DNA from: an uncultured Lachnospiraceae bacterium
GTDB lineage: Bacteria > Bacillota > Clostridia > Lachnospirales > Lachnospiraceae
DNA: 63,661 bases
Assembly (NCBI GenBank): GCA_910585935.1
Contig: CAJUHN010000001.1
Span: 1 to 63,661, forward strand
Reading direction: 5' to 3'
Shown: piece by piece, positions 11,716 through 47,332 of the stretch
Numbering within the stretch: the first letter of the stretch is position 1
Layout: each line of letters begins with the position of its first letter
Notes under the pieces: model-generated
Seen by the model: only the letters and a program-made list of their open reading frames with translations
What the model was told of the DNA's origin: nothing
The model's database searches: none
Program-made: the position numbers and the translations under genes

Positions 11716-11999
11716 AAGAATCCTCCGTTTTTTATTGTTTTATAAATTTATTTCCTTCCCCCTTCTTTTTAACACATTATAATCCTTTTTTATTTTTTTG
11801 AATAGTCTATTTTTATAAGATATTATATATTTTCAATCCAATATTTCTTAAATACCTATTCAAAAATTCAATTTCATGTTATACTAGCACTATGATATAG
11901 AAGTATATAATATAATAGAATTATCAAAATATTCCCATATTATATAAAATACTAAAAAAACGATACCTTTTACATAAATACTTGCATTTGGGAGGAATT

Positions 12000-12830
12000 A
12001 TGAAATTAGATTTAATATCAAAGGACATGCGGAAATTAATATTTAAAACAGCTTATAGTGGACATACAGGTCATATTGCTTCTGCTATGTCTGTAGTAGA
12101 AATTTTAACATCTTTATATTTTGGAGATATTCTTCAATATAATCCTAAAAATCCTTTATGGATTGAAAGGGATAAATTAATCATGAGCAAAGGACATGCT
12201 AGTCTTGCTTTATATAGCACTTTAGCTATGGCTGGATATTTTCCTATTGAGGAATTAAAAACATTTTGCCATCCTTTTTCCAAATTTGGGGGTGAACCAA
12301 AATATGGTGATATTCCTGGTATTGAAGCCACTACAGGTTCATTAGGGCATGGTTTATCATTTGCAGTTGGAATAGCATTAGCCTCTAAATTAGATTCTAT
12401 TCAAAATAGAATATATGTTATTTTAGGAGATGGAGAATGCCAAGAAGGTTCTGTATGGGAAGCTGCTATGTCTGCTGCACATTATAAATTAGATAATTTA
12501 ACTGTAATTTTAGATTATAACAAACTTCAAGCTATGGGAGAAATAGAAGATATACTCTCTTTAAATCCAATAAATAAAAAGTGGGAATATTTTGGATGGG
12601 AAGTATTAGAAATAGATGGGCATAATCTAAAAGAAATACAAGAAGTTTTATCCATGGATAGACAAAGAGATATCAAAAAGCCTAGAATTATTATCGCTCA
12701 TACTATAAAAGGAAAAGGTATTTCTTTTATGGAAAATGTTCCGATCTGGCATTATAGAATGCCAAATGAAGAAGAATTACAAATAGTACTAAACGATTTA
12801 GAATTATCAAAAGAGGAGTTGCTTAATTAA
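12000..12830 (+). CDS. Transketolase, N-terminal (ThDP-binding) subunit of a split enzyme
   Basis: GSLGHGLS and ILGDGECQEGSVWEA blocks. I placed the start at the ATG at 12000, preceded by GGGAGG; the ORF track start at 11982 is unlikely. Confidence 0.85.
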   Translation: MKLDLISKDMRKLIFKTAYSGHTGHIASAMSVVEILTSLYFGDILQYNPKNPLWIERDKLIMSKGHASLALYSTLAMAGYFPIEELKTFCHPFSKFGGEPKYGDIPGIEATTGSLGHGLSFAVGIALASKLDSIQNRIYVILGDGECQEGSVWEAAMSAAHYKLDNLTVILDYNKLQAMGEIEDILSLNPINKKWEYFGWEVLEIDGHNLKEIQEVLSMDRQRDIKKPRIIIAHTIKGKGISFMENVPIWHYRMPNEEELQIVLNDLELSKEELLN

Positions 12831-12831
12831 A

Positions 12832-13746
12832 ATGAGAAATACATATTTAAATACATTATATGAATTAGCAAAACAGGATAAGAATGTATTATCTTTAGTA
12901 GCAGATAATGGCATGATTGTTTATGATGATTTTAAAAGAGATATGCCAGATCAATTTTTTAACTTTGGTATATCAGAGGGGCATATGATTTCCGCTGCCG
13001 CTGGATTGGCAAGTTGTGGAAAGATTCCTTTTATATATACAATAAGTGCCTTTTTAGCATATAGATCTTATGAATTTTTACGTTTAGATGTATGTCTTCA
13101 AAATTTAAATGTAAAAATTGTAGGAATTGGAACAGGCACATCTTATGGATATCTTGGTCCTACTCATCATACGACTGAAGATATTGCGTTATTACGTTCT
13201 TTGCCAAATTTAACCGTCTTTTCTCCTTCTACAATAGAAGAAACAAAAGAAATTATAAAAGCTTCTTATTTTATAAATGGACCTGTCTATATTCGTTTAG
13301 GTAATAATAGTTTATCTTATCCGATGATTAATAAAGATTTTTGTATTGGTAAAGGAAATATTTTATCAACAGGTGATGATATTGCTATCTTTACTACTGG
13401 TTCTATCTTAGAAGAAGTCTTAAAAGTTGAAAGTAAACTTAAAGCCCTAAATATAAATGCAGAAATAATTAGTATACACACTTTAAAACCTTTTGATTGT
13501 GATTTAGTAGAATATATTGCAAATTCTAACAAAAAAATTTTTTCAGTAGAAGAACATAATTGTATTGGTGGACTCGGCAGTGCTATAGCTGAAATAATTG
13601 CCGATAGAAATCTTAACACAGAATTTTATCGAATAGGTCTTAAAGATATATTTGCAGAAGGGTATGGCACACAACAAGAAGTCAGAATGCAAAATAATTT
13701 AGATGCAAATGGGATCTATAAACAGATGATAGATATACTGTTATAA
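12832..13746 (+). CDS. Transketolase, C-terminal (pyrimidine-binding) subunit
   Basis: FNFGISEGHMISAAAGLA block. It starts 1 nt after the stop of the N-terminal subunit. Confidence 0.85.
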   Translation: MRNTYLNTLYELAKQDKNVLSLVADNGMIVYDDFKRDMPDQFFNFGISEGHMISAAAGLASCGKIPFIYTISAFLAYRSYEFLRLDVCLQNLNVKIVGIGTGTSYGYLGPTHHTTEDIALLRSLPNLTVFSPSTIEETKEIIKASYFINGPVYIRLGNNSLSYPMINKDFCIGKGNILSTGDDIAIFTTGSILEEVLKVESKLKALNINAEIISIHTLKPFDCDLVEYIANSNKKIFSVEEHNCIGGLGSAIAEIIADRNLNTEFYRIGLKDIFAEGYGTQQEVRMQNNLDANGIYKQMIDILL

Positions 13747-13835
13747 TATTTTGAGAAAATATTCAATATTCTATCTCATACAACACTATCTTATTTTTTA
13801 GCTTCATAAGAGAATTAAAATAATGGATTAAGATA

Positions 13836-13928
13836 AATAAGGCTGTAATATAGAAACTTTTATTATATTAAACCTACTTATAAAGTGTAATAGTATTAAT
13901 CATATGCTTTCTATGTAACAGCCTTATT
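13836..13928. repeat. 21-bp imperfect inverted repeat with 51-nt loop at a convergent gene junction
   Basis: AATAAGGCTGTAATATAGAAA (13836-13856) pairs with TTTCTATGTAACAGCCTTATT (13908-13928), with 1 mismatch and 1 G-T. Confidence 0.8.
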
Positions 13929-13944
13929 ATATTCATTATCATTA

Positions 13945-14805
13945 CTAATTAATTATAATATCTTTTATAAATCTCTTTATTATTTCTGTAGTATCTCTAC
14001 AATAAAATCCATTTTTTTGCGCTTCTGTGACATCAATAGCATAACAAGTATTTCTTTTGTTCACTTTTTTTTCTGTTAAAATAGAGGAACTATTTAATTC
14101 ATCTTTTAGTAGTTTTAATATTTCAATTATTGTTACCTCTTGCTTTCCCCCTAATACTATCCTTTTTAATTCTTCATTTTTTCTTCTTAAAATTTTTTCC
14201 ATAAATTCTGAAATATCATCTATATATACTAAATTATTATATATTAAATCTGGATTATAATATATTACTTCTTCATTTTGTATTAATCTTTTTATTACTA
14301 ATGGCAACCATGGAGAGGACATATCTGTCCCTTTTCCCAATACTCTTGGTAATCTTAAAATCCATCTATTTTTAATATTTGTATTCTCTAAAATTCTTTC
14401 TCCAATATATTTTGTTAATCCATAATCATCTAAATTAATCCTATCACTATTTATATTAACTTCCCCTATTGTTTCTCCATATATAGATGTAGAAGATACA
14501 TAAATAAATTGTTTCACTAACATTTTTTGAGCCCAATTACATATATTTCTCATAGGCTGTATAGTATTATCTAAATATTCCTCAATAGAAGCTGGCTGAA
14601 TTTGCGCCGCTAGATGTATAATGGCATCACAATTTGGCAATTCTTTTATTGTTTTAGATAAATCCATATGAATTAATGGAATTTTGGGATTATTAGGTTT
14701 TCTATTTTTATATATACCAATCACATTATATTGTTTTGATATTAAATATTCTGCTATATTATTTCCGATAAATCCACCTATACCTGTCATTAAAACTGTT
14801 TTCAT
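13945..14805 (-). CDS. NAD-dependent sugar epimerase/dehydratase (extended SDR)
   Basis: Rossmann motif TGIGGFIGNN and catalytic YGLTKYIGE (YxxxK). Confidence 0.7.
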   Translation of the reverse strand: MKTVLMTGIGGFIGNNIAEYLISKQYNVIGIYKNRKPNNPKIPLIHMDLSKTIKELPNCDAIIHLAAQIQPASIEEYLDNTIQPMRNICNWAQKMLVKQFIYVSSTSIYGETIGEVNINSDRINLDDYGLTKYIGERILENTNIKNRWILRLPRVLGKGTDMSSPWLPLVIKRLIQNEEVIYYNPDLIYNNLVYIDDISEFMEKILRRKNEELKRIVLGGKQEVTIIEILKLLKDELNSSSILTEKKVNKRNTCYAIDVTEAQKNGFYCRDTTEIIKRFIKDIIIN

Positions 14806-14906
14806 ATATTTTTCTCCTAAAAAAATAAATATTTTTATCTTTACTTTAATTTATAAATAAATCTAAAAATTTTATCTAAAAAACTATTTTTCATATATTC
14901 ATTATA

Positions 14907-15569
14907 TCATTCAAAAAATATAAAGCTATAATCCCCCTGATAGCCCCACTGCTTATATAACCATTCCCATTCTGTAGTAGAAAAAAAAGATTCACATGTT
15001 AATTGCCAGTAAAGTAAATTTATCTTTTCCTCATCATTTCTATAAGAATCTGTCATAATATAGCTATTCCCTTTACTAACTCTCATAATTTCTTGAACGG
15101 CTTTTTTCAACTGAAAGATAGGTAAATTATGAATAGTAGCAAGCGAAATTACTAAATCAAAAGAATTATCAGGAAATTCTAATTTTTCTGCCTGTCCTAT
15201 CTTTATAAAATCTTTTACTTCTTCTTTCGCATGTTCTACTGCATATGTAGAGATATCAATTCCTATTATCTGTAATTCTGGTAATAACTTCTTAAATTCA
15301 TAAAGCAAAAAACCTTTTCCACAACCAATATCTAATATTTTATCTCCAGATTTCAATTTATAATAATTAATCATATTCTCTGCTGTTTGTTGCCATCTTC
15401 CATCATAATGATATCCCCCATATCCATATTTACGTTCTCCATCAAAAAAATCATAATCAAATTTTTTAGCTATCTTTGCACATTCTTTCTTATCATAATT
15501 TATCACTCTTTCTAAATAATTTCTCTTTGTACTTTTATGAACTGTTTCTACAAAATCGATATATGCCAT
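14907..15569 (-). CDS. Class I SAM-dependent methyltransferase
   Basis: Motif I ILDIGCGKGFLL; 220 aa. Confidence 0.75.
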   Translation of the reverse strand: MAYIDFVETVHKSTKRNYLERVINYDKKECAKIAKKFDYDFFDGERKYGYGGYHYDGRWQQTAENMINYYKLKSGDKILDIGCGKGFLLYEFKKLLPELQIIGIDISTYAVEHAKEEVKDFIKIGQAEKLEFPDNSFDLVISLATIHNLPIFQLKKAVQEIMRVSKGNSYIMTDSYRNDEEKINLLYWQLTCESFFSTTEWEWLYKQWGYQGDYSFIFFE

Positions 15570-15588
15570 TTTTAGCCTCTCCTCAGAA

Positions 15589-16659
15589 TTAAATAAAGTT
15601 AATATGATTTATATCCATCTCTAAAAAAGAATTGATTAATTCATTTCTTCTATCATATACACAGTGTTGCTTACAACATTTCATCGCATCAAATTCTCTA
15701 AAAATTTTTTCTGTTTCTTCTGAAAACCAACCTTCTTTAAAAGATTGTTCATTTAAATCAAAAATTCTTCCACTGCTTAAATAAGCTTTATCATGGCAAT
15801 AATAAACTTTAGCATTTGCAGCTATTACACAGCTAAATTCCTTTATCGGACATTTATTATAAACTCTTGTAAATACTTGGTCATGATTAAAATCATTCGT
15901 ATATAAATCAATAATCCGAAACTTTTCTTCTGATAATTCTTTTTCCAATTTTTTCAACTCTTCTATTACTGTTTCTCGAATTGGTTTATGATATTCTTCT
16001 GTATGATTACAAATCAAAGGTGCGAACTTTACATGATTAGCTCCTAACTTTTTCATTAAAAATGCCATTTCTCTAATTTGTGTATAGTTTTCTTTTGTAA
16101 TTACAAAATTTATTCCTAGTTCACATGTTTTATCTTTTATCGCAGAGAATTTTTTAATATTTTCACATAATAGCTCAAAAGAACCTCTTTTTATTCCTCG
16201 TAATTTGCAATATTGTTCATCATTTATAGATTCTATAGATAATCTTACCCATTTTGCATGTGCTAAAATTTCCGCCTTTTTTTCTTTCAATAAACTTCCA
16301 TTCGTAATAATAGACAAATCTATTCCTTTATTTAATATTCTCTCCATCGCTTCTTCTATATATGAATAAAATAATGGTTCTCCTCCGCCACTGAATGTAA
16401 CAGCTTTTACTCCTATATCACTTATATCCTCTATAATTTCCATCATCTTTTTATATGGAATAGTATCATTTCCATCATATTCATCTAAATTTAAATAAGA
16501 ATTTTTATAATGACAATAATAACAATTATGGTTACATTTATTGGTTGGTTTAATTCTAATATATAATGGAATACATCTTTTTTCCTCTTTTAAATTTTGT
16601 AAAATATCTGGATGATGAAAAATCTTCATTAAGCTATAGGGCGTTTGTTTTATGTTCAT
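15589..16659 (-). CDS. Radical SAM enzyme, paralogue 1 (C-terminal Cys-rich auxiliary region)
   Basis: CNHNCYYC (CxxxCxxC) and SGGGEP. C-terminal cysteines CPIKEFSC, YYCHD and CCKQHC. The tail is HINFI. Confidence 0.8.
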   Translation of the reverse strand: MNIKQTPYSLMKIFHHPDILQNLKEEKRCIPLYIRIKPTNKCNHNCYYCHYKNSYLNLDEYDGNDTIPYKKMMEIIEDISDIGVKAVTFSGGGEPLFYSYIEEAMERILNKGIDLSIITNGSLLKEKKAEILAHAKWVRLSIESINDEQYCKLRGIKRGSFELLCENIKKFSAIKDKTCELGINFVITKENYTQIREMAFLMKKLGANHVKFAPLICNHTEEYHKPIRETVIEELKKLEKELSEEKFRIIDLYTNDFNHDQVFTRVYNKCPIKEFSCVIAANAKVYYCHDKAYLSSGRIFDLNEQSFKEGWFSEETEKIFREFDAMKCCKQHCVYDRRNELINSFLEMDINHINFI

Positions 16660-16967
16660 AATTTTTCCTTTCTTTTATTATGTAATTTATGGGAATTTAA
16701 TGTTCTAATTATCCTTTTATCATATTAAATTTTTCTTTTATTTTAAATCTATATCACTTTAATATGTCTTTATTTTCCTACTTTTTTAAACAGAATTTTT
16801 AAGGAGAAAATTTAGTAAAATATTTAAATTTTACTGTACTTTTTTTTATAAAAATAGTATAATATTAAATAAAGTTATTAAAAAATATGTTATGCAAAAA
16901 AGTAGGATTTTTAGCACATTTTTTAATAAATAACTTTTTACTGTATACATGAAATAGGAGATAAATT

Positions 16968-18083
16968 ATGGATAACAATAAACTTATATTAGATGGAAGT
17001 AAAGTTTTATGGCATCAAGAAAGATTGCAACAATGGAACTATGGAAAAGGTAAAGTTGCCCCCATTACTATTGATTGTGCATTAACTACAAAATGCAGTT
17101 ATCGTTGCATTTATTGTTATGGTAAAATGCAATGTATCAATCAATCTGATAATTTAGATAAAGAAACTATCTTTAATTTTTTAGATGATGCTGCTGAAAT
17201 AGGAGTAAAAGCTATTAGTTTTGTCAGTGATGGCGAAAGCACTTGTAACCCCCATTTAAAAGATGCTATTATTCATGGTAAAGAAAAAGGATTGGATATG
17301 GCACTTGGAACAAATGGATATTTACTTAAAGACGAAGAATTAAATGAGATTTTACCTTGCCTCACTTATTTGAGATTCAATATTTCAGCGGGTGAGCCAG
17401 ATAGATATTCTTATATACATGGTTGTAAAGTGGATTGTTATTACAAAGTAGTAAATACTATAAAGGAAGCTATAAGAATAAAGAATGAGAGAAAACTTAA
17501 TACTACTATAGGTTTACAAATGGTTCTAATGCCTGAATTTAAGGATCAAATTATACCATTAACAAAATTAGGAAAAGATTTAGGGGTCGATTATCTTGTT
17601 ATTAAACATTGTAGTGATGATGAAGATGGAACATTAGGAATAGATTATAACAAATATGACGAATTAGTCAATATTTTAAAAGAAGCAGAAAGCTATTCTA
17701 CAGATACATATCAAGTGAGCGCTAAATGGTCTAAGATTTTAAGTCATGGAAAAAAGAGATATTGTAAATGTTTTGGAGCTCCTTTTATCATACAAATGTC
17801 AGGTACTGGATTAGTCGCTCCTTGTGGAATGTTTTTTAATGAAAAGTATAAAAAGTATCATATCGGAAATATTAAAGAAACCAGATTTAAAGACTTATGG
17901 ATGAGTGATCGCTATTGGGAAGTTATGAATTCCCTCACTCAAGATGATTTTGATCCTAATAAAGAATGTGGAACGTTGTGTCTTCAGCATAAAACAAATG
18001 AAGTTTTATGGCAGTTATATCATGATCATTCCATTCCTGAAATACCTGAAGGTTCTATCCCACAACATATAAACTTCATCTAA
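16968..18083 (+). CDS. Radical SAM enzyme, paralogue 2
   Basis: CSYRCIYC, a VSDGEST block and a C-terminal Cys-rich region. The tail is HINFI. RBS is AGGAGA. Confidence 0.8.
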   Translation: MDNNKLILDGSKVLWHQERLQQWNYGKGKVAPITIDCALTTKCSYRCIYCYGKMQCINQSDNLDKETIFNFLDDAAEIGVKAISFVSDGESTCNPHLKDAIIHGKEKGLDMALGTNGYLLKDEELNEILPCLTYLRFNISAGEPDRYSYIHGCKVDCYYKVVNTIKEAIRIKNERKLNTTIGLQMVLMPEFKDQIIPLTKLGKDLGVDYLVIKHCSDDEDGTLGIDYNKYDELVNILKEAESYSTDTYQVSAKWSKILSHGKKRYCKCFGAPFIIQMSGTGLVAPCGMFFNEKYKKYHIGNIKETRFKDLWMSDRYWEVMNSLTQDDFDPNKECGTLCLQHKTNEVLWQLYHDHSIPEIPEGSIPQHINFI

Positions 18084-18091
18084 ATAAATAT

Positions 18092-18133
18092 AAGGACGCT
18101 TAATCATTATAAATAAATTAAGCGTCCTTTATA
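18092..18133. terminator. Bidirectional intrinsic terminator between convergent genes
   Basis: AAGGACGCTTAAT (18092-18104) pairs with ATTAAGCGTCCTT (18117-18129). The stem is 13 bp, flanked by A/T runs. Confidence 0.7.
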
Positions 18134-18150
18134 ATATATCAACACCATAT

Positions 18151-18720
18151 TTATGATAGATTTTTTAATTCATCAACTACATGCTGTAAAATCGCTTGAT
18201 GTATGGTTTCTACAATTCCATATTCTTCTATTGGTACATAGATATTATAATCTCCCAACTGTTTTACATTATTATCACTCTTAAATCCGGTAAATGTGAT
18301 AGTAATTCCTTTCCTCTTTTTCATGGCTTTTATAGCATTTACAATATTAGCAGAATTTCCTGAACTGCTTATCGCCACTAATATATCTTCTTTTTCTGCC
18401 AATAATTCTAATTGTTTAGAAAATATTTCCTCGTATCCATAATCATTTCCAAAGCATGTAAGTACTGTAGAACTAAACATACTTCTAGCATGAATCTCTC
18501 CATTTTTCATGAAATCTGTTGTCATATGCTCTGCAATCCCTGCACTTCCACCATTTCCAATAAAAAATACTTGCTTGTTATCTGCCTTAGCTTTCTGAAA
18601 TATGGAAATCAATGTTCCTATTAAAATTTCGTAATCTTTTGTTATAATAGAATCTTTATGATTCAATAATTCTGTATTAGTCATAACTTCTATTAACTTT
18701 TTCTGATATTCCATATACAT
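18151..18720 (-). CDS. gmhA: SIS-domain sedoheptulose-7-phosphate isomerase (GmhA-like)
   Basis: FFIGNGGSAGIAEHMTTDF and AISSSGNSANI blocks typical of phosphoheptose isomerase. Confidence 0.7.
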   Translation of the reverse strand: MYMEYQKKLIEVMTNTELLNHKDSIITKDYEILIGTLISIFQKAKADNKQVFFIGNGGSAGIAEHMTTDFMKNGEIHARSMFSSTVLTCFGNDYGYEEIFSKQLELLAEKEDILVAISSSGNSANIVNAIKAMKKRKGITITFTGFKSDNNVKQLGDYNIYVPIEEYGIVETIHQAILQHVVDELKNLS

Positions 18721-18740
18721 GTATCTTCTATTCCTTTCTC

Positions 18741-19733
18741 TTATCCTAAATATTTAAACCAGTCTTTTGTTGCCTCTTCTATAGAATCAGGTGTCCAAAC
18801 AGGTGCAGCTCTCCAATAATCAATATTATCCAAAATTTCTTTTACGCCCTGTTCTAAAGATACTTTAGCTTTCCAATTTAATACCTTTTCAATTTTTGTT
18901 GTATCAGCAAATGTACAATCTGGTTCTCCTGGTCTTTTTGGAATATGAATTGTTTCTCCTCCTAATAGCTCGCATAAGCGATTAACAGAATATGTTCCTC
19001 CACTGCCCACATTAAAAATCTCATTTGTTATATTTGATATCGCAGCTGTATAAAAGGCATCTGCTATATCTGTCACATATGTAAAATCTCTCGTCTGTTC
19101 TCCTGTTCCCACCACAGTAAATGGTTCTCCAGCTAATTTTTGAGCCAAAAATACTCCAAATACTGCACCATAAGTCCCTGATGTACGTGACCTTGTCCCA
19201 TATACATTAAATAAACGTAAACTCACTACTGGCACACCATATACTTGTCCCCAATGTAATACTGTTTCTTCTCCTAATCTTTTTGTTAAAGCGTAAGGAT
19301 ACTGTGGCTGTATCTTAGCATCTTCATCAGTTGGAAATTTATCTGGTATTCCATAGCATGATGATGAAGCTGCATAAACAAGTTTTTTTATTCCCTCTTC
19401 TTTTGCACACTCTACCACATTATAAGTTCCTAATACATTTGTAGAATAATATTCCCATGGCTTCTGAATAGATGGCACGATATCTGCCAATGCTGCCATA
19501 TGAAACACATAATCTACACCGCAAAAAATATCCCTAATTTCTGTTTTATTTCTTATATCTAATTGATATATAGTAAGATTATTATTATCTTTATGATGTT
19601 TCAAATTTTCTGGTCTTCCTGTTGTAAAATTGTCAATTACACGGACTGTATGCCCCTCTGCTAATAATCTATCCACAATATGAGAACCTATAAAACCACA
19701 TCCACCTGTCACTAATGAAATCATTCTACTCAT
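18741..19733 (-). CDS. NAD-dependent nucleotide-sugar epimerase/dehydratase (extended SDR, UXS/RmlB-like)
   Basis: VTGGCGFIGSH and YALTKRLGE (YxxxK). Confidence 0.75.
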   Translation of the reverse strand: MSRMISLVTGGCGFIGSHIVDRLLAEGHTVRVIDNFTTGRPENLKHHKDNNNLTIYQLDIRNKTEIRDIFCGVDYVFHMAALADIVPSIQKPWEYYSTNVLGTYNVVECAKEEGIKKLVYAASSSCYGIPDKFPTDEDAKIQPQYPYALTKRLGEETVLHWGQVYGVPVVSLRLFNVYGTRSRTSGTYGAVFGVFLAQKLAGEPFTVVGTGEQTRDFTYVTDIADAFYTAAISNITNEIFNVGSGGTYSVNRLCELLGGETIHIPKRPGEPDCTFADTTKIEKVLNWKAKVSLEQGVKEILDNIDYWRAAPVWTPDSIEEATKDWFKYLG

Positions 19734-19748
19734 TTCCTTTCTAATATA

Positions 19749-21272
19749 TTAAATATTTAATAGTGTACTTGCATACTTTAATACATTTACCTTTTCTACC
19801 GCTTCCTTATTGCCAACAATATTTGTAGCTAATGCACCTGCTATATTTCCCATAAACAGTCCTATTTCTATAGAAGCTCCTGCTGCTACAAATAAACTAG
19901 CTACAGAGAAAAATGCATCTCCTGCTCCAATCGTATCTTTTACTTTTAAAGTAAAAGCTGGACACGAAACGATCTCTTCATTTTCTACAGACATTGCTCC
20001 TTTAGAACCTCTTGTGAGTAGACCCTTTCCAGAAAAATGTTTCGCTAAACGAATAAATGCTTCTTTTTCTGTCTGTTCATAATCAGAAAATGCTAATTTC
20101 AATTCCTTTTGGTCTAAGGTAAAGATATCTGCTCTTTTATATTTTGTAATTAAATTTGTTCCATAATTAGAAGAATTTGTTTGACAGTTTAAAGCGAGAA
20201 ACTTTGCTTTACTTTCTATTAGTTGCATCACTTCTTTATCTATTAGTCCATGTCCAAAATCGCATAATATCACTGCATCATATTCTTCTATTTTCTCTCT
20301 TAATTTGATTTTAAATTTTTCCATAGAAGAATCATCTATTTTCATAGGGGAAGTTAGGTTATTTATTACAAATATTTTATCTATCTCTTCTCTTTTTTCA
20401 TTTTGAGAGATAAATCTCTTTTTTATAATAGTGCTGAATTCTTCACTATATTCCATATCCACTCTCATTTTATTGCTTAATTCATTTAAAATACGGCTGT
20501 GGATATTTTCTTCATTGCCTAAAATAGACATAATCGTAACATTATCAGAAAACGATGCTATATGCCTTGCAATTGCTAAAGAACCTCCTAGATATTCTTC
20601 TGAATTTTGATATCTAGCAGAATATCCCAAATCCTTTGACATAGTTCCCTGTACATTACAAAAAACATATTCATCAATAATCGCATCACCTATTACAAGA
20701 ACCTTCATATTTTTTATTTTTTCTATGTATTCTTTGATATGCTCTAATGTTGCCTTTTTCTTGAAATTAAATATAAAACTCTTTACTTCTTCTGATAAAG
20801 CAGGAAATATATTATTAATTATTTTTGTAGAACTAAATACTAAACCAGATGTATAGTAAACTTCTCCGCCATGTTTACGAACTAACTCTACCTCCTCCTC
20901 TATTTTACCTGTTATATCATTATTTTTATTTTCATATTCTTTTCCTTTTACATAAATATTAGGCTCTACTATTTCTATGATATCATCTGCAGTATAACAT
21001 TCAGATAATATCACATAGTCAATATATTCTATAGAAGATAAAACTTTTAGCCTTAATTCATCATTAAAATATGGTCTTCCCGGTCCTTTACGCACATATT
21101 TAGCTGCTGTCACAGAAACTACAAGAATATCCCCTAATTTTTTTGCCTCTTCAAAATGTATGATATGACCTGGGTGCACTAAATCATAGACTCCATGACA
21201 AAGCACTACCTTTTTATCTGTAAAACTTTCTTTTAATTTTAAATAATCTTCCTTGGTTATAATCGTTCCCAT
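19749..21272 (-). CDS. Bifunctional nucleotidyltransferase (N-terminal, HxGH cytidylyltransferase-like) plus PfkB sugar kinase (C-terminal); HldE-like with reversed domain order
   Basis: The N-terminus has VVLCHGVYDLVHPGHIIHFEEAKKLGD. The C-terminus has the PfkB signature DTIGAGDAFFSV. Confidence 0.75.
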   Translation of the reverse strand: MGTIITKEDYLKLKESFTDKKVVLCHGVYDLVHPGHIIHFEEAKKLGDILVVSVTAAKYVRKGPGRPYFNDELRLKVLSSIEYIDYVILSECYTADDIIEIVEPNIYVKGKEYENKNNDITGKIEEEVELVRKHGGEVYYTSGLVFSSTKIINNIFPALSEEVKSFIFNFKKKATLEHIKEYIEKIKNMKVLVIGDAIIDEYVFCNVQGTMSKDLGYSARYQNSEEYLGGSLAIARHIASFSDNVTIMSILGNEENIHSRILNELSNKMRVDMEYSEEFSTIIKKRFISQNEKREEIDKIFVINNLTSPMKIDDSSMEKFKIKLREKIEEYDAVILCDFGHGLIDKEVMQLIESKAKFLALNCQTNSSNYGTNLITKYKRADIFTLDQKELKLAFSDYEQTEKEAFIRLAKHFSGKGLLTRGSKGAMSVENEEIVSCPAFTLKVKDTIGAGDAFFSVASLFVAAGASIEIGLFMGNIAGALATNIVGNKEAVEKVNVLKYASTLLNI

Positions 21273-21352
21273 TTATTCTCTCCTAAATGCAAAATATAAA
21301 TATTTGAATTTACAATATGGCAGTGCTGCCCTCTCATTTTTTTATTATCATA

Positions 21353-22414
21353 TTAAATAAAATTTACATGATCCCCTGGATGAATCAATTCATCTAAGTA
21401 TTTATTCATTTCATCTAATCTACATAACTCTCTACAATTTTTCTCTAAATCCATATCTGCAAAAATCTTATTAATTTTCTTTCTATGTTCTCCTTCCCAT
21501 ATTTCTACAAAGCTTTCTTTATTTATATTTCCATAACTCAATTCCTCGTTCCCCATAAACACAATACAAGGCCATAAATTTCCCTTTGAATCTATATAGA
21601 CCATAAATGGTAATGCCAAACATTGTTTATATGCTCTTTTACAAGATAATTTTTCCATAGAATGAGTTCTAAAATATATTTTAAAATCTTCTGTTTCTAA
21701 TTCTTTCACTTCTTTTTCTAATCCAATTAACTCATTATAATCAATCTTTAAAATCTGCTGGCTTTGTGGATGTTGAGAAAAAGGTTTAATTGTAAAATAA
21801 TCGATTCCTATTTCTCTCAACCTTTTTGCCATTTCTATTATTTCATCTTTATTATCAGGAAGAAGTAATAATTGTACTCCTATAGTCGTGGATAAAGAAT
21901 TATCTTTTTTTATTCTAACAGCCGCCTGCATATTTGTTAAAACTTTTTGTAAATCTCCCTTTTTTCCTCTTTGAATTTTATTAAAATTCTCTTCTGTTAT
22001 CGCTGCTGTACTGAATCTTATCCATGTTAAGGATTTTAAACATTCTTTTGATACTTCAGGTGTTAATAAAACTCCATTTGTAGACACTGCTACATCTATT
22101 CCCAATTCTTTTGTTTTATTAATAATTTCTGGAGCATCTTTATGTAATAAAGGTTCTCCTTCTCCTGCATAAATAATGCTTTTTACTCCTTTTTTTGATA
22201 TTTCTTCTAAATTTCTAATTAATACTTCTTTATCCATTATAGTTGGTTTATATCCTGTATAATCTACTGCACAAAAGATACAGCGATGATTACAAGCATT
22301 CGTCAGCCCAATTTCTAATTCAATGGGATAAATATTTTCTCCACTTTTCCATCTACTTACTATTTCTGGATGAAATATTAATTTATGAGAATCTATTTTT
22401 ATTTTATCACTCAT
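21353..22414 (-). CDS. Radical SAM enzyme, paralogue 3
   Basis: CNHRCIFC, AGEGEP and a C-terminal Cys-rich region. The tail is HVNFI. It overlaps the upstream gene by 8 nt. Confidence 0.8.
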   Translation of the reverse strand: MSDKIKIDSHKLIFHPEIVSRWKSGENIYPIELEIGLTNACNHRCIFCAVDYTGYKPTIMDKEVLIRNLEEISKKGVKSIIYAGEGEPLLHKDAPEIINKTKELGIDVAVSTNGVLLTPEVSKECLKSLTWIRFSTAAITEENFNKIQRGKKGDLQKVLTNMQAAVRIKKDNSLSTTIGVQLLLLPDNKDEIIEMAKRLREIGIDYFTIKPFSQHPQSQQILKIDYNELIGLEKEVKELETEDFKIYFRTHSMEKLSCKRAYKQCLALPFMVYIDSKGNLWPCIVFMGNEELSYGNINKESFVEIWEGEHRKKINKIFADMDLEKNCRELCRLDEMNKYLDELIHPGDHVNFI

Positions 22415-24476
22415 TTTCTTCTACTCCTTCTGCTAGTTTATCTAAAACTCTCTCCATTAATCCTCTAAATGTCATTTTCTCTAAAGCAATTTTTCTTCCT
22501 CTTTCTATCATTATTTGTCTTTCTTCTTCATGTGATAAATAATAATCTACTTTATCTAGTAAATCTTCTCTATTCCTAAAACAAACAACATCTTCCCCTA
22601 ATGTAAGAATTTTTCTTATATCCGTTACATCTGCATCCGTAGGAATAAAATTACTCATATAAAATCCTCCGCTTAACATACATTCCCAAGCCCGCGCTGC
22701 TGAAGTTGTCATTATATTATTCCCTATATTTATTTTAGAAGCTTGATATATTTTTGATAATGTTTTTCCATTTTCTGCTGGTCCCATCGCATATTTAGAA
22801 TATTTAGGGTCTTTTAGCCAACCATTTCCCCATAATTTAAGATTTGTATAGCCAGCTTCTATCAGCCAATCTACAACTGTGGTGCGGAATAACCTTTGAT
22901 TGAAAACTTCAAACATTTCGTTTGCCACATAGTCTATAATTTTTTCTCTTCCTGTCCCTAAATCATCAAAGCTCTCTTTTACATATTCTGTAAATTCATC
23001 CTGTGTATATAAAAATTTACTTGTTTTTTTTACATATTCTTTATATACTAAAAGTATTTGTTTCACTAAATTCTGTATTTGTCGTTCTTGAAATTTATTA
23101 GGAAATTCGCTAATAAAATCTTCTGTATCGGCTCCATGACATACAAAACAAATGTCTGCACTATATTTATTTTTCTCTTCTTGTGTTAATTCATATGGTT
23201 TATAGATCTTTTCATTTGCTGGTATAGGAGCATCCATCATTTTGCAATATTTTCCATACCCTAATTCTTGGACTTTATCCCATGTAATAAAATGATTTAA
23301 TACTAAATCATTACTATTCAGTTTTTTAGGAGTATTTTCATCAAGAATATTTGGTAAAAGGTCTTGAATCCATGTTACAAAAAAAACTTCATCTGGTGCA
23401 AAACAATGTTCAAATCTAAAATGATCTAGTATAAATATTATATCAGGCTTTAATTCACTTATATTTTGGTAACATAATACACCAGGGATTTCATATATAT
23501 CCTTCTCTTCTAATAAAACTCTAGCTTCTAATCCCATCTCTTTTATAGCCTCAAGACAATTTTTAGTATGATATTGTAAAACGGTAGTAAATCGACTTGT
23601 TAAAAATAAAATTTTAGGCTTTTTATTTTTAATGTTATACTTAATTAATTTATTTCCTGAATAATAAGTATCTATCTCATTCTTATACTTATAAAAATCT
23701 CTTTTTCTTTCGTTATTTATTTTTATAAAAGTATTTTTAAAGGATATATCCTTACTAATTATGTAATCTGGCAAAATAGCCTGATAATTACTGAAAAACT
23801 TTAGATTCATATCATTGCCAATAATAAAAACTACCCTTCCCGATAAAAATAATTGTTCAAACTCCTCAAATTCTATTAAAAATTCCATTAAACTTTGTTG
23901 TTCATAATAAATATATAATGGAGTTTTGCTTGTTAAAAGTATTCTATTGAAAGCTTTTTTTTCTATTTCTATTAAAAGCCTTATATTAATATTATTATGT
24001 ATATATATAACTCCTTCTTCATCAAAACCATTTACTTCTTTTTCTAAATAGTTATAATTGAATTTATTATTACAATAATATACTATAAAATTCTTATCTC
24101 TCCAAATTAATAAAAAGTCTAAATCTGAAAATTCTCGTAGCTCTGAACCAATAAAGTATTCATATTTTAATATAGATTTCCTATTATGCTCATATATTTT
24201 TCTATAATTCTCTTTATTAGGGAGATAATAACACTCCCAAATCAACTGCTCTGCTATTTTATTATTATTTTCATTAACACATTCAATAAAACTAATAATT
24301 GCATCTTGATAATCTTCATTTCTAAATTGCATTTTTCCTATCTCAAAAAGTATTTCATATTTTTCTTCTTTATAAATTACTAAACAATCCTTTAAAATAT
24401 CTAGCCCCTTTTTATATTCTCCTTGTTCTTCTAAATCTATCGCATTATTAATAGAAATATTTAATTTATTCTTCAT
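22407..24476 (-). CDS. Large TPR-like N-terminal / CgeB-type glycosyltransferase-like C-terminal protein
   Basis: 689 aa. The N-terminus has helical repeats. The C-terminal 250 aa resemble the spore-maturation CgeB/DUF3880-type GT fold; this was judged by eye only. Confidence 0.45.
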   Translation of the reverse strand: MKNKLNISINNAIDLEEQGEYKKGLDILKDCLVIYKEEKYEILFEIGKMQFRNEDYQDAIISFIECVNENNNKIAEQLIWECYYLPNKENYRKIYEHNRKSILKYEYFIGSELREFSDLDFLLIWRDKNFIVYYCNNKFNYNYLEKEVNGFDEEGVIYIHNNINIRLLIEIEKKAFNRILLTSKTPLYIYYEQQSLMEFLIEFEEFEQLFLSGRVVFIIGNDMNLKFFSNYQAILPDYIISKDISFKNTFIKINNERKRDFYKYKNEIDTYYSGNKLIKYNIKNKKPKILFLTSRFTTVLQYHTKNCLEAIKEMGLEARVLLEEKDIYEIPGVLCYQNISELKPDIIFILDHFRFEHCFAPDEVFFVTWIQDLLPNILDENTPKKLNSNDLVLNHFITWDKVQELGYGKYCKMMDAPIPANEKIYKPYELTQEEKNKYSADICFVCHGADTEDFISEFPNKFQERQIQNLVKQILLVYKEYVKKTSKFLYTQDEFTEYVKESFDDLGTGREKIIDYVANEMFEVFNQRLFRTTVVDWLIEAGYTNLKLWGNGWLKDPKYSKYAMGPAENGKTLSKIYQASKINIGNNIMTTSAARAWECMLSGGFYMSNFIPTDADVTDIRKILTLGEDVVCFRNREDLLDKVDYYLSHEEERQIMIERGRKIALEKMTFRGLMERVLDKLAEGVEENE

Positions 24477-24583: not shown

Positions 24584-25762
24584 CTAATCATTTTTTATTT
24601 TAAATTCCACATCATAAAACTGCTTTTTTAATTCTATTCCTTCTATGTATAAAAATCTCTTTATTGTTTCGACAATTAATTTTGATGTATCTTTCCCTTT
24701 ATATGGATTCTGATCTATCTTAATATTATTTTTAAATTCTTCTCTTCTCGCCATTTTTATCTGTCTAATAATGGCTTCCTTCTCAGGCTCACAGTTTAAA
24801 ATACTATTAGCCTGTAATCGCCCTTTTTGTCTATCTCCAATATTAATGGTAGGAATCCCAAATGCTGGCACTTCCACAATTCCACTAGAAGAATTTCCTA
24901 TCACAAATTCAGAATATTGAACAGCCGATAAATATCTCAGTAACCCTAAAGAATAATATGATTTACAATTTTTATTTTTTTCTACAAACTCATCTATTCT
25001 GTCATTGATTTCTTTTCCTTCTGTATCTGCATTTGACTTTGTAATAATAAAATTCATATCTTCTGTCGCTTTTAATGCATTTAATAACTCCTCTAATTGT
25101 TTTAAAGCGCTTGCTTTTTCTAAAGTAACAGGATGAAAAGTAACCACTCCATATGGATTATCCAAACAAAATCCTATCTCCTGCTCCAATTCTGATTTAC
25201 CCATCAATTTCATATTGCAGATATTTTCTACTCCCACATCTCCAAAATTAAACACTCTGCTCGGTTCTTCTCCTAATTGAATCACTCGTTTTCGATATGC
25301 TTCACAACTTACAAAATGTAAATAACTCATTTTTGTGACGCAATGTCGAATCGTATCATCAATCACACCTTCTGTAATCTCGCCTCCTGATATATGAGAA
25401 ATAGGTATTTGTTCATTCATAGCACAAGCACAGATCGGCAGCAGTTCATATCTATCTCCTAATACTACTAACATATCCGGTTTACAGTTTTTGAAAAAAT
25501 CAGAGAACTTATAAAAAGCTTTTGCCATAGTCTTAGAAGCAGATATTCCTCCTTCCTCTTCTACTAAAATATCTATCTCTGCAGAAATAGGCAATTTATC
25601 TTCTCTAATTTCTGTCACAGTATATCCGAAGTCTTTGGATAAATGTGTTCCTGTCGCCACTAATACTAATTTTAATTCTTCATCTTTTTCTATTAACTTT
25701 ATTATATTTTTTAATAGTCCATATTCTGCTCTTGTCGCTGTTACTACACATACTGTTTTCAT
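24584..25762 (-). CDS. Hydrolysing UDP/GDP-N-acetylhexosamine 2-epimerase (NeuC/LegG-like)
   Basis: VVTATRAEYGLL, GDRYELL and HISGGEITEG blocks. Confidence 0.8.
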   Translation of the reverse strand: MKTVCVVTATRAEYGLLKNIIKLIEKDEELKLVLVATGTHLSKDFGYTVTEIREDKLPISAEIDILVEEEGGISASKTMAKAFYKFSDFFKNCKPDMLVVLGDRYELLPICACAMNEQIPISHISGGEITEGVIDDTIRHCVTKMSYLHFVSCEAYRKRVIQLGEEPSRVFNFGDVGVENICNMKLMGKSELEQEIGFCLDNPYGVVTFHPVTLEKASALKQLEELLNALKATEDMNFIITKSNADTEGKEINDRIDEFVEKNKNCKSYYSLGLLRYLSAVQYSEFVIGNSSSGIVEVPAFGIPTINIGDRQKGRLQANSILNCEPEKEAIIRQIKMARREEFKNNIKIDQNPYKGKDTSKLIVETIKRFLYIEGIELKKQFYDVEFKIKND

Positions 25763-26763
25763 AATACGATTAACTCATCTTTCTTAAAATCTTTTACCGC
25801 TTCTTTTCCAATCACTTCATACCATTTCATCGGGCTGATGCCATTTCCCGGTCTTTTTATATATAACTTATCTTCTGTTAATATTTCTCCCTTTTTTATA
25901 TCACAATTTGCTACTATACTCTTCCTTGCTATTATAATATTTTTTTGTTCTGATTCGCTAGGGCATTTTTTTCCATTTCCCATCGCTCTCTCTATATTTC
26001 TGATAACTGTTACCATTTCTTTTAATTCTTCTGGCTCTAAACTCGCTTTATGGTCTGGACCTTCCATATTTTTATCTAATGTAAAATGTTTTTCTATCAC
26101 ACATGCTCCCATTGCGACAGCGGCAATAGGGACTTCTATTCCTATAGTATGATCAGAATATCCCACTTCCAAATGACATTCCTCTTTTATCGTTTTCATC
26201 GCATTCAAATTTACATCACAAAAGGGAGTAGGATATTCTGTATTACAATGAAGTAAAGTGACTTTTCCCGCACCATTTTCTTTTAATATTTCTAATGTCT
26301 CTTTTATTTCCTCCATTTGGCACATGCCTGTAGACATTATAACGTCTTTTCCTGTTTTTGCTATCTTTATTAAATATGGCAAATTTGTTATCTCTCCCGA
26401 TGGGATTTTCCAAAATGGGATATCTATACTCTGTAGAAACTCTATGCTATCTAAGTCAAAAGGGGTAGATAAAAAAAGTATCTTTTTTTCATCACAATAT
26501 TCTTTTATTTTTCTAAACTCATCAAAAGATAATTCTAACTTTTTTACCATTTCAAACTGTGTTTCCTCTGCGTTAGTATTTTCTTTTTGATACTCCGCTT
26601 TTTCTGCAAATTTGGAAATCACATTTTCTGTGATAAAGGTTTGAAACTTCACACAATCTGCTCCCGCTTCTACTGCTTTATCCACTAATTTCAATGCATT
26701 TTCATAACTTCCATTGTGATTATCCCCTGCTTCTGCTATAATAAAAACTCTTTTCTGTTCCAC
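25759..26763 (-). CDS. Nonulosonic acid synthase (NeuB/LegI/PseI family)
   Basis: FIIAEAGDNHNGS, a TIM-barrel NeuB core and a C-terminal SAF domain. It shares a 4-nt ATGA overlap with the downstream gene. Confidence 0.85.
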   Translation of the reverse strand: MEQKRVFIIAEAGDNHNGSYENALKLVDKAVEAGADCVKFQTFITENVISKFAEKAEYQKENTNAEETQFEMVKKLELSFDEFRKIKEYCDEKKILFLSTPFDLDSIEFLQSIDIPFWKIPSGEITNLPYLIKIAKTGKDVIMSTGMCQMEEIKETLEILKENGAGKVTLLHCNTEYPTPFCDVNLNAMKTIKEECHLEVGYSDHTIGIEVPIAAVAMGACVIEKHFTLDKNMEGPDHKASLEPEELKEMVTVIRNIERAMGNGKKCPSESEQKNIIIARKSIVANCDIKKGEILTEDKLYIKRPGNGISPMKWYEVIGKEAVKDFKKDELIVL

Positions 26764-26777
26764 TTTTTCGCCTCCAT

Positions 26778-27833
26778 CTATTCATATCTATATTGAATCA
26801 TAAAGGAATTGTCCACTCTAAAGTCACTCTCTCTACTTTTTCTTATTTCTAATAAAGAATTATATTTTTCTATATCAAATATATTTTTTCCGATACAAAA
26901 ATCAATCTTTCCATTTTTATGGAACTGTTTTTTAAAATGAAATAGACTATCTTCACTTCCTACACCTCCGCCAAGATGCAGCTTTTGAATCCCTTGATGA
27001 TTTGCCCATACCGCCGCCTGATATAACAGTAAATTCATAGAAGCGAGTATTTTATATTCCTCTAATGCTCCAGATAAATGATAATGCATATAATTTTTGT
27101 TATAGAAAAAAATAGCCGCACTAATGATTTTTCCTTGATAATAGGCACAAAATAATTTTGTCTGTTCTCTCATAGCAGAAAAAATATACTGAAAATACTC
27201 TTTAGAAAAGTAATAATAATTATCTGCATTATTTTTCTTCATGGTCTTTTCATAGATAGAGATAAATTCTTCTATATGTTGGTCTTCTTCTATCTGAATC
27301 GTAATTTCATTTTTTATTGCCTTCCGAATCATATTTCGATTTTTCGTATCCATATTTTTCATGATAGCTTCTTCATCTGTTGTATCCATAAAAATGGTCT
27401 TCTTTAAATGTCTTATCTCAAAGACCTCTTCCCAATGTTTATAGTTTTCAAGTAAGGGATGAAATCTCAAAAATTGAGAGATGATATGATTTTCTTTTCC
27501 ATATTTTGTGAGTTCTTCTATAAAAATTTCTAAGAACTCTCTATCTATTCTTCCTTCTTCTAAAGGTCCTCCATATCCATAAGGAGTTTCCCAATCAAAC
27601 CATGTATCTGCCTCAATACATTCTGTTAGATACTTAAATTTAGAGATATCTTTTTGTATCACTATATAACATATGCGGTTCTTATCCCTTTCAAAATAAA
27701 TTAAATATGCCTGTCCATCTTCATGAAGTTCTAAAGACTTGCTATATTGGCATAAATAATAGATATCCCAATTAGAAAAGCTCTTCACAATATCATTCCA
27801 TTGTTTTTCTTCCTCCGTTGTAATGATTATCAT
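26778..27833 (-). CDS. FemAB/Acetyltransf_6-like acyl- or aminoacyl-transferase
   Basis: 351 aa. The C-terminal block MNLLLYQAAVWANHQGIQKLHLGGG is typical of FemAB-like GNAT-fold proteins. Confidence 0.55.
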   Translation of the reverse strand: MIIITTEEEKQWNDIVKSFSNWDIYYLCQYSKSLELHEDGQAYLIYFERDKNRICYIVIQKDISKFKYLTECIEADTWFDWETPYGYGGPLEEGRIDREFLEIFIEELTKYGKENHIISQFLRFHPLLENYKHWEEVFEIRHLKKTIFMDTTDEEAIMKNMDTKNRNMIRKAIKNEITIQIEEDQHIEEFISIYEKTMKKNNADNYYYFSKEYFQYIFSAMREQTKLFCAYYQGKIISAAIFFYNKNYMHYHLSGALEEYKILASMNLLLYQAAVWANHQGIQKLHLGGGVGSEDSLFHFKKQFHKNGKIDFCIGKNIFDIEKYNSLLEIRKSRESDFRVDNSFMIQYRYE

Positions 27834-27859
27834 TTTTTCTCTTTTCTCCTATCTCTATT

Positions 27860-28906: not shown

Positions 28907-28936
28907 TCTCCATTCTCTCCATCTATTAAATATTTA

Positions 28937-29602: not shown

Positions 29603-29768
29603 TTTTTCTCCTTAATTATACTTTTTTATATAATAATATATATTGTTAATAGTTCCTAAAATTTTATGTATCTTCCATACCTAATAACAACAAAATTCAT
29701 AAATATCATTCCTAAAATCCTTCATTATCCTTTATGCAAAAAAAGTATACATTTTGCACAAAGCCTTC

Positions 29769-30452: not shown

Positions 30453-30464
30453 CTTTATCCCCTT

Positions 30465-32719: not shown

Positions 32720-32758
32720 CGCGTGCCTCCTTATCCTTATGCTTTCGATTTTTTTTAC

Positions 32759-33733: not shown

Positions 33734-33794
33734 TTTTGTCCTCCTGTGCAAATTTATACACAAAAAATAACCGCTATATTAAATCTTTAATATA

Positions 33795-47318: not shown

Positions 47319-47332
47319 ATTAGGAGATAGCT

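Follow-up and report, generated by a model that had tools for sequence, protein, structure and literature searches.

What is built by a set of heptose-type activation genes that stands, together with three radical S-adenosylmethionine (radical-SAM) genes and a split transketolase (TK)-like enzyme, beside the nonulosonate and flagellin genes of a gut bacterium? The question is raised by an uncultured Lachnospiraceae bacterium (assembly GCA_910585935.1, contig CAJUHN010000001.1), of which a stretch of 63,661 nucleotides (63.7 kb, G+C content about 30%), hereafter the window, was analyzed. Among the antigens of the human gut microbiota, the flagellins of Lachnospiraceae are dominant ones, and to our knowledge their post-translational decoration is essentially unstudied. 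Genes were called from an open reading frame (ORF) listing combined with Pfam and NCBIfam scans, and all the genes listed in an initial annotation of the window were recovered where it had placed them, as was the arrangement it proposed, a second nucleotide-sugar module that is separate from the nonulosonate genes and lies within a flagellin glycosylation island. On balance, we lean toward the interpretation that this module is a two-block cassette which would make a modified higher-carbon nucleotide sugar and which, in this genome, would serve cytoplasmic flagellin glycosylation. The interpretation draws on which genes are present, on their domain make-up and residue substitutions, and on synteny and the linkage to flagellin in relatives.

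The two blocks emerge from a comparison of relatives. Scanning one genome per species for the fusion of a nucleotidyltransferase and a PfkB kinase (NT-PfkB) encoded in the window gave 80 loci, and five metagenomic loci brought the set to 85, which were surveyed by phmmer with the window proteins as queries and with a flank horizon of 10 kb. Neighbor counts resolve an activation block, in the order SIS isomerase, GmhB-like haloacid dehalogenase-type (HAD) protein, the 330-aa short-chain dehydrogenase/reductase (SDR) SDR330 and the fusion, and a remodeling block, in the order rSAM3, rSAM1 or rSAM2, the N and C subunits of the TK-like enzyme, and methyltransferases. SIS adjoins the HAD gene in 38 loci and SDR330 adjoins the fusion in 52. 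Alongside the fusion (85/85 loci), the census found SDR330 in 70 loci, rSAM3-type genes in 68, SIS in 66, the TK-like N subunit in 59, rSAM1-type genes in 51 and the GmhB-like HAD in 46; DegT aminotransferases (33), the methyltransferase MT220 (31), GT689-type glycosyltransferases (24), Maf (21), a B12-radical-SAM protein (20), flagellin (17) and rSAM2-type genes (16) are less frequent. By identity to the window fusion, 28 species-level loci form group A (at least 62%) and 53 loci form group B (56-61%).

The cassette is widespread. Nearly all loci from the species scan belong to Lachnospiraceae, and Selenomonas ruminantium ATCC 12561, a Butyrivibrio, a Defluviitaleaceae and a Clostridium are also represented. 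The fusion has more than 3000 homologues, with 65-72% identity among the matches listed (Lachnospiraceae, Roseburia and Ruminococcus metagenome-assembled genomes (MAGs)) and 56-70% across Lachnospiraceae, and rSAM3 has more than 4000, with 71-78% identity among the matches listed. The fusion of one relative that is abundant in human-gut metagenomes was found in 451 blocks of an assembly collection. Gene order is identical on contigs of the same species from further samples. The window fusion itself is present on 41 contigs, and among the species-representative genomes none carries a fusion more than 70% identical to it; either the representative genome of this species is without the island or the species lies outside the genome collection.

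Judged by sequence, the activation enzymes resemble those of the heptose pathway most closely. SIS (18151..18720, minus strand), a GmhA-like sugar-phosphate isomerase by its match to TIGR00441, scores 94.5 bits against that model's gmhA equivalog cut-off of 209; of its PDB sequence matches, the best 13 are phosphoheptose isomerases (GmhA) and the last two are DiaA. Among 61 orthologues H61, the phosphate-binding S119, S121 and S124, and H180 are invariant, and E65 and Q172 are replaced in every one by Asp and Glu, respectively. The 507-aa fusion (19749..21272, minus strand) had been described as HldE-like with its domains reversed, and this description stands. A cytidylyltransferase-like domain (PF01467, residues 25-152), with its HxGH motif as HPGH at residues 33-36, precedes the PfkB kinase domain (PF00294, residues 190-484), which is the opposite of the order in E. 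coli HldE, and the best NCBIfam domain matches follow the same sequence, rfaE_dom_II at residues 18-155 before rfaE_dom_I at 183-489. The score of the fusion is 160.7 bits against an HldE equivalog cut-off of 521, and its best PDB matches are the cytidylyltransferase-like 5x9q and, for the kinase half, the heptose-7-phosphate kinase HldA (4e84). SDR330 (18741..19733, minus strand; PF01370, E=5e-62) is a GalE/UXS-like extended SDR and a predicted nucleoside diphosphate (NDP)-sugar enzyme; its PDB matches are GalE, UXS, WbpP and WbgU, and it is not HldD-like. The initial annotation had also noted that no GmhB-type phosphatase is visible, and a phmmer search of the whole window with a relative's GmhB-like protein as query likewise returned no HAD/GmhB-like ORF at E<=0.01; in relatives such a HAD is common, as counted above. 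A heptose origin of the sugar is our best guess, held at somewhat better than even confidence.

The TK-like pair appears to have another task than the one first assigned to it. Its N subunit (11982..12830, plus strand, with a probable ATG start at 12000; PF00456, E=6e-48) holds the PP-domain that binds thiamine diphosphate (ThDP) and its C subunit (12832..13746, plus strand; PF02779 and PF02780) the Pyr and C-terminal domains. The nearest solved structures are those of the split transketolase of Carboxydothermus hydrogenoformans, 6YAK for the N chain (E=3e-77) and 6YAJ for the C subunit (E=7e-55), an enzyme that is active and keeps the canonical residues (PMC7661550). In E. coli transketolase, whose numbering is used here, the site for the substrate phosphate consists of R358, S385, H461 and R520, four residues conserved in both transketolase and 1-deoxy-D-xylulose 5-phosphate synthase; the sugar hydroxyls are bound by H26, H100, H261, D469 and H473 (PMC11387542, the source of all TK residue roles given here). 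We aligned 56 cassette-linked C subunits and 60 N subunits, the window included. In the C subunits H461 is replaced by Gly (53/56), D469 by Leu (52/56) and R520 by Asn or Thr (46/56), and S385 is lost; among the residues retained are R358, H473 and the cofactor Glu. The N subunits retain H26, H66, H261 and the GDG..N motif, and H100 is Glu in 20 of the 60, the window among them. Overall, the ThDP/metal motif, the cofactor Glu and H26, H66, H261 and H473 are conserved in 54-60 of the 56-60 sequences. The NCBIfam scores of the pair, 270 and 175 bits, compare with a transketolase equivalog cut-off of 488.

Synteny points the same way. Fifty-four TK pairs have 55 direct radical-SAM flanks (rSAM1 26, rSAM2 15, rSAM3 14), and in these neighbor counts the pair is never directly flanked by SIS, HAD or the fusion. 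Two loci (L005 and L009) have an enzyme like acetolactate synthase (ALS) or YerE, also ThDP-dependent, and no TK-like pair within their flanks; a third (L091) has both. For NDP-ketosugars, the attachment of two-carbon branches by ThDP enzymes is an established reaction (PMC4753412, PMC9306805). The initial annotation had taken the transketolase as a source of sedoheptulose-7-phosphate (S7P). The loss of phosphate-binding residues (S385, H461 and R520) along with D469, and a synteny with radical-SAM genes rather than with the isomerase, argue against that supply role and for a specialized carbon-carbon-bond enzyme of the remodeling block. The pair probably remodels the sugar instead of supplying S7P.

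The other members of the remodeling block are the radical-SAM proteins rSAM1 (15589..16659, minus strand; 356 aa), rSAM2 (16968..18083, plus strand; 371 aa) and rSAM3 (21353..22414, minus strand; 353 aa), all with PF04055 and SPASM matches. They are paralogues, 25-30% identical, which fall into three clean orthogroups among about 140 relatives (50 members in that of rSAM1); that of rSAM3 is the core one of the block. Their Pfam Radical_SAM scores are 86, 51.7 and 85.4 bits against a gathering cut-off of 29.5, and in NCBIfam none matches a curated family. The CxxxCxxC motif (CNHNCYYC in rSAM1) is found in all three and is invariant in 139/143 sequences. Just four further Cys are conserved (C265, C283, C327 and C331), which fits one auxiliary cluster of the twitch-like kind; the full seven-Cys SPASM motif for two auxiliary clusters is absent, although the Pfam SPASM model is over its cut-off. 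An N-terminal K..H motif and an invariant C-terminal H-[VI]-N-F-I (NHINFI in rSAM1) are common to the three orthogroups, the latter across about 140 relatives from L001-L085. The extreme C-terminus is conserved and functionally important in MoaA and viperin. In the AlphaFold model of rSAM3 (mean predicted local distance difference test score (pLDDT) 81.7) this tail is of low confidence, and the top Foldseek matches of the model are DesII, a TDP-sugar enzyme, SuiB, a peptide maturase, BlsE, a nucleoside-sugar enzyme, viperin and MoaA. These matches hint, weakly, at a nucleotide-linked substrate.

The three radical-SAM enzymes had been read as one set. All are present, but they do not form a single unit: in 81 other non-redundant loci rSAM1-type and rSAM2-type genes are mutually exclusive (47 vs 16, both in 0), and the window carries both. 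Each type has its own company. rSAM2 adjoins the TK-like C subunit in 15/16 loci, and rSAM1-type genes accompany MT220 in 26/28 loci and SDR286 in 17/18. In the window, MT220 (14907..15569, minus strand; 220 aa) is a class-I SAM methyltransferase (Methyltransf_31/11/25) and SDR286 (13945..14805, minus strand; 286 aa; PF01370, E=3e-28) is a short, weak extended SDR. In a strain of the same species (GCA_948799445.1, locus L086, 14616-15670) rSAM1 is a pseudogene, split by a 16-bp deletion into fragments of 195 and 159 aa. Phase variation was considered for this break and rejected, the change being a 16-bp deletion and no homopolymer slip. The exclusivity of the two types and the decay in L086 indicate that the trio of the window is a composite of two alternative tailoring sub-modules. 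Elsewhere, a third radical-SAM gene occurs as fragments in L001-L003 and, in L004, as a shorter (262 aa) gene without a break.

GT689 (22407..24476, minus strand) is a putative flagellin-directed glycosyltransferase of 689 aa. The initial annotation had called it a CgeB-like protein with tetratricopeptide repeats (TPR). The CgeB-type domain is there (PF13524, residues 543-678); no TPR family of Pfam matches the N-terminal part, which nonetheless forms helical repeats in the AlphaFold model (pLDDT 90.2), with five N-terminal helices at residues 2-104, followed by a beta-rich middle domain and a GT-B domain. Sequence comparison with the PDB gave no useful match, and Foldseek returned GT4 enzymes and, over the full length, OGT and SPINDLY, with E of about 1e-5 but TM scores of about 0.3. 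FlmG is a characterized flagellin glycosyltransferase that joins TPR to a GT-B domain (PMC7591256). The GT689 family is only about 40% identical, far less conserved than the biosynthetic enzymes, as would be expected of an enzyme that recognizes a variable protein acceptor.

Flagellin and Maf are found with the cassette in many relatives. In the window, the module is contiguous with CMP-nonulosonate genes, with Maf (MptE-like, 619 aa; 34681-36540, minus strand; PF01973, E=9e-41) and with flagellin (419 aa; 36899-38158, minus strand; Flagellin_N and Flagellin_C), and the same holds in relatives. Of the 28 group-A loci, 18 have flagellin and/or Maf within 10 kb, and 13 of the 14 flagellin-bearing loci have a GT689-type gene. 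Four loci (L001-L004) place the cassette and a glycosyltransferase of about 690 aa beside flagellin, and the gut-abundant relative mentioned above has flagellin and Maf in a single run with the cassette, a B12-radical-SAM gene, a HAD gene and a gene for a CgeB-type glycosyltransferase. Three cultured Butyrivibrio strains (L089-L091) have the GT689-type gene directly upstream of flagellin. In WCD2001 the order is Maf-rSAM-rSAM-SDR-TK-HAD-SDR-fusion-SIS-GT691-flagellin; VCD2006 has the same order, with nonulosonate genes after flagellin; INlla16 has three Maf genes, and its two blocks lie on opposite sides of flagellin. Few membrane proteins are encoded in the cassette loci, which fits a cytoplasmic protein glycosylation. 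The connection to flagellin that had been presumed from the flanking genes is supported by 18 of the 28 closer loci and by the three cultured strains, as is a flagellar use of the module in this genome.

Group B presents a second context. Flagellin, Maf and GT689 are all missing within 10 kb in these 53 of the 85 loci, where the conserved operon reads [c0]-SIS-HAD-SDR330-fusion-rSAM3-rSAM1-TK-MT. Membrane proteins are rare in these loci. The recurrent partners are soluble proteins, almost all missing from group A, and comprise c0, a TIGR04372 glycosyltransferase (c5), FkbM-like methyltransferases, a carbamoyltransferase and an asparagine-synthase-like protein, and Pfam and NCBIfam scans of the recurrent group-B proteins mostly gave no match. 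A protein of about 460-860 aa without a Pfam match, c0 is encoded directly upstream of SIS (at 834-3416 in L059 and in 22 other group-B loci) and is absent from group A; sequence comparison with the PDB gave no useful match, and its sole match, a weak one, is to the BFO_1060 glycosyltransferase family. It is a candidate transferase for a second acceptor of group B. A few GT2/GT4, WcbI and UDP-Galp mutase genes lie near group-B cassettes, and L044 (768-5844), like L035, L041 and L068, has genes for an adenosine 5'-phosphosulfate (APS)-kinase-like protein, a phosphoenolpyruvate (PEP)-utilizer-domain protein, an NTP-transferase and a class-I glutamine amidotransferase, a set that we take to resemble the Campylobacter jejuni O-methyl-phosphoramidate (MeOPN) genes Cj1415-Cj1418. 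A service of the radical-SAM/TK block to the nonulosonate pathway was considered and rejected, as 52 of the 53 group-B loci keep this block beside the kinase block with no NeuB. The cassette is a mobile sugar-building unit used in two contexts, not a flagella-specific part.

How might the two blocks work together? From the gene set we infer the substrate, each chemical step and the acceptor as follows. The activation block would work like the NDP-heptose route: SIS would isomerize a ketose phosphate, most likely S7P from central metabolism, and the product would be phosphorylated at C1, dephosphorylated at the distal carbon (in the window by an unlinked phosphatase) and nucleotidylated, after which SDR330 would carry out C4-keto chemistry. 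The remodeling block would then act on the nucleotide sugar through rSAM3, through rSAM1 with MT220 and SDR286 and/or rSAM2, and through the TK-like enzyme. The radical-SAM enzymes, DesII/BlsE-like and with one auxiliary cluster each, could oxidize, epimerize or deoxygenate unactivated carbons, and the TK-like enzyme could extend a keto or aldehyde group by two carbons, or remove a unit of that size. Finally, GT689 may move the product directly to Ser/Thr of flagellin or onto a nonulosonate installed by Maf. A bolder version, to which we give rather little credence, sees in the cassette a way to a nine-carbon or C2-branched sugar that works anaerobically and without NeuB; the sugar would decorate the flagellins of abundant human-gut and rumen Lachnospiraceae and, in group B, another acceptor. 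Here a radical-SAM enzyme would oxidize a carbinol at an unactivated position of an NDP-heptose, giving an aldehyde or ketone, the TK-derived ThDP enzyme, having given up the binding of sugar phosphates, would add a two-carbon ketol unit, and radical-SAM paralogues would epimerize or deoxygenate the product.

Several observations weigh against the favored interpretation of a two-block cassette for flagellin glycosylation. The initial annotation had proposed an activated heptose, and SIS with its best matches to GmhA, the kinase half with its match to HldA and the HAD beside SIS in 38 loci speak for it; all activation enzymes, however, score well under the NCBIfam equivalog cut-offs, the Glu65 that is replaced throughout the SIS family is a catalytic residue of GmhA, and SIS is missing from about 12 loci that do carry the fusion, radical-SAM genes and the TK-like pair, so that the sugar entering the pathway may be something other than a heptose. 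No GmhB-like phosphatase is encoded in the window. R358 is retained in the TK-like enzyme, so its substrate might still be phosphorylated. For rSAM3, the structural matches are of a kind general to the superfamily (15-18% identity, TM scores of about 0.65), with the peptide maturase SuiB ranking alongside DesII. In the window, the TK pair and rSAM2 lie on the strand opposite to the other cassette genes, and with the decay of rSAM1 this may mean that part of the cassette is dispensable or degenerating here. Lastly, there are the group-B loci. The initial annotation had counted a module found mainly in loci unlinked to flagella as evidence against its proposal; 53 of 85 loci have no flagellin, Maf or GT689 within 10 kb, a count that neither settles that objection nor removes it. 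The fusion of the window itself lies 16 kb from flagellin, so the 10-kb horizon undercounts linkage.

Other explanations were weighed. One follows the initial annotation and takes every enzyme at its name: the split transketolase would boost S7P, GmhA, HldE and an unlinked GmhB would convert it to NDP-heptose, the radical-SAM, SDR and methyltransferase proteins would tailor it, and flagellin would be the acceptor. In its favor, the closest solved structure to the pair is that of a split transketolase shown to be active, the ThDP motifs and the cofactor Glu are in place along with R358, H26, H66, H261 and H473, and the pair occurs with SIS in 44 loci. We nevertheless think this unlikely, given that about 50 of 56 orthologues have other residues in place of S385, H461, D469 and R520, that scores of 270 and 175 bits stand against 488, that the pair is nearly always beside a radical-SAM gene and never beside SIS, HAD or the kinase, that the pair stands without SIS in 12 loci and SIS without the pair in 19, and that an ALS/YerE-like enzyme takes its place in L005 and L009. 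Much of the same evidence bears on a lincosamide-like scheme. In lincomycin biosynthesis LmbR, LmbN, LmbP, LmbK and LmbO make a GDP-octose; by analogy, the TK-like enzyme would build a ketose phosphate of eight or more carbons, to be activated by the GmhA-like isomerase, the kinase, a phosphatase and the nucleotidyltransferase. The logic is shared, from a C-C-forming enzyme through SIS, kinase, HAD and nucleotidyltransferase to SDRs and an aminotransferase (DegT-type in 33/85 loci), and the active site of SIS, altered in all members (E65D, Q172E), could suit a non-heptose substrate. Yet most phosphate-binding residues are gone from the TK-like enzyme, which is syntenic with radical-SAM genes and not with SIS, SIS loci without the pair are common (19), and there is no transaldolase, all of which makes the scheme very doubtful.

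A further explanation concerns the acceptor. The cassette might be a general surface-glycan or glycoconjugate module, serving for example a wall polysaccharide or an S-layer protein, with flagellin merely a neighbor. Group B (53/85 loci) offers the same operon with c0, c5, a carbamoyltransferase and MeOPN-like genes, with no flagellin, Maf or GT689 within 10 kb, and a few GT2/GT4, WcbI and UDP-Galp mutase genes close by. Against this, in the window and in group A the cassette sits between nonulosonate/Maf genes and flagellin, 13/14 flagellin-bearing loci have GT689, which stands directly upstream of flagellin in the three cultured Butyrivibrio strains, there are hardly any flippases, polymerases or other membrane proteins, and the 10-kb horizon, with the window fusion 16 kb away, undercounts the linkage to flagellin. 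We regard this explanation as improbable, and we retain the reading in which the two-block cassette would supply a flagellin glycan.

The surroundings of the cassette complete the picture of the island. A legionaminic acid-type nonulosonate set occupies 24584..33763 on the minus strand and comprises, by Pfam, NeuC, NeuB, FemAB-like, DegT-like, methyltransferase, CMP-nonulosonate (CMP-NulO) synthetase, PtmE-like, DegT and LegB-like genes. Within it, FemAB/GNAT-like, weak DegT-like and methyltransferase genes lie between NeuB and the CMP-nonulosonate synthetase (26778-29602), which suggests an N-acyl- or methyl-modified legionaminic acid derivative. FliS and FliD, on the same strand, and FliW come after flagellin, and the window flagellin falls in a 90%-identity cluster with a fellow member named as flagellin of a 'Lachnospiraceae bacterium' MAG. 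Beyond the flagellar genes are a formyltransferase-like gene and a polysaccharide deacetylase (41255-42984) and a GT2-GtrA-YfhO trio (46162-49921), of a kind typical of wall-polymer glycosylation. Near the left end of the window lie a BNR-repeat sialidase-like protein (161-1162) and an IS200-type (Y1) transposase (1903-2304).

The cassette is very common and about 70% identical across genera, yet none of its enzymes reaches the threshold of a curated family. Solving it would yield a new flagellin glycan and would give functions to a large family of radical-SAM enzymes whose invariant C-terminal tail is unusual and to a transketolase lineage that seems to have left phospho-sugars behind; it would also tell whether Gram-positive gut commensals produce heptose nucleotides. 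The compact versions that three cultured Butyrivibrio strains carry beside flagellin make the question testable today. The initial annotation knew of no characterized flagellin glycan pathway of such composition, and our search of a literature library likewise found no published description; a 2026 survey of pseudaminic acid in Clostridium and a paper on the C. botulinum flagellar island mention none of the cassette genes.

Known systems nevertheless share parts of its design. NDP-heptose pathways lead to ADP-L-glycero-beta-D-manno-heptose through GmhA, HldE, GmhB and HldD, with GDP and ADP variants for capsules, S-layers, septacidin and hygromycin B. The cassette has in common with them a SIS protein that matches GmhA, a PfkB kinase and an HxGH nucleotidyltransferase in one polypeptide, a GmhB-like HAD beside SIS in many relatives and an extended SDR beside the fusion. 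It differs in the reversed domains of the fusion and scores far under the equivalog cut-offs, in the Glu65 to Asp and Gln172 to Glu changes throughout the SIS family, in the missing phosphatase of the window, in a GalE/UXS-like rather than HldD-like SDR, in its coupling to radical-SAM and ThDP enzymes, and in its Gram-positive host and flagellar context. With the Maf- and FlmG-type islands of Campylobacter, Aeromonas, Clostridium botulinum and Caulobacter it shares flagellin, Maf and an adjacent complete nonulosonate pathway, and GT689 is a further soluble glycosyltransferase whose modeled N-terminal helical repeats and GT-B domain recall the layout of FlmG. In Aeromonas, glycosyltransferases of the Fgi type are reported to build the nonulosonate up to a heteroglycan (PMC7874193). 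However, among the described islands of this kind we found none with a heptose-type block, three radical-SAM enzymes or a TK-like enzyme, and GT689 is of the CgeB type (PF13524), a class uncharacterized on flagellin.

The remodeling block has its closest counterparts in deoxysugar biosynthesis. Like YerE (yersiniose) and the pyruvate dehydrogenase E1 (PDH-E1)-like proteins of the avilamycin, paulomycin and aldgamycin clusters, the TK-like pair is a ThDP enzyme in a deoxysugar-type cluster beside SDRs that could form a keto group; its two-subunit organization matches the Gram-positive systems, and L005 and L009 have an ALS/YerE-like enzyme and no TK-like pair within their flanks. It is, however, TK-like and not ALS-like or PDH-E1-like. 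A second parallel is found within the Lachnospiraceae, where the 6-deoxy-6-sulfofructose transketolase of the genus Faecalicatena, a split transketolase, is reported to have been recruited to a substrate that lacks a terminal phosphate (PMC11659671). That enzyme is catabolic and acts on free sulfosugars. The radical-SAM proteins compare with DesII, BlsE, BtrN, HygY and AprD4 in having a radical-SAM core followed by a four-Cys, twitch-like C-terminal domain and in standing in a sugar-nucleotide cluster, and DesII and BlsE are among the best structural matches of rSAM3; in contrast, identity is 15-18%, no curated family matches, and the cassette proteins form a distinct family of three orthogroups with the invariant C-terminal H-[VI]-N-F-I. 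Taken together, flagellin glycosylation islands and NDP-heptose-type activation are the known elements of this locus, and the uncharacterized radical-SAM/ThDP remodeling chemistry is what is new in it.

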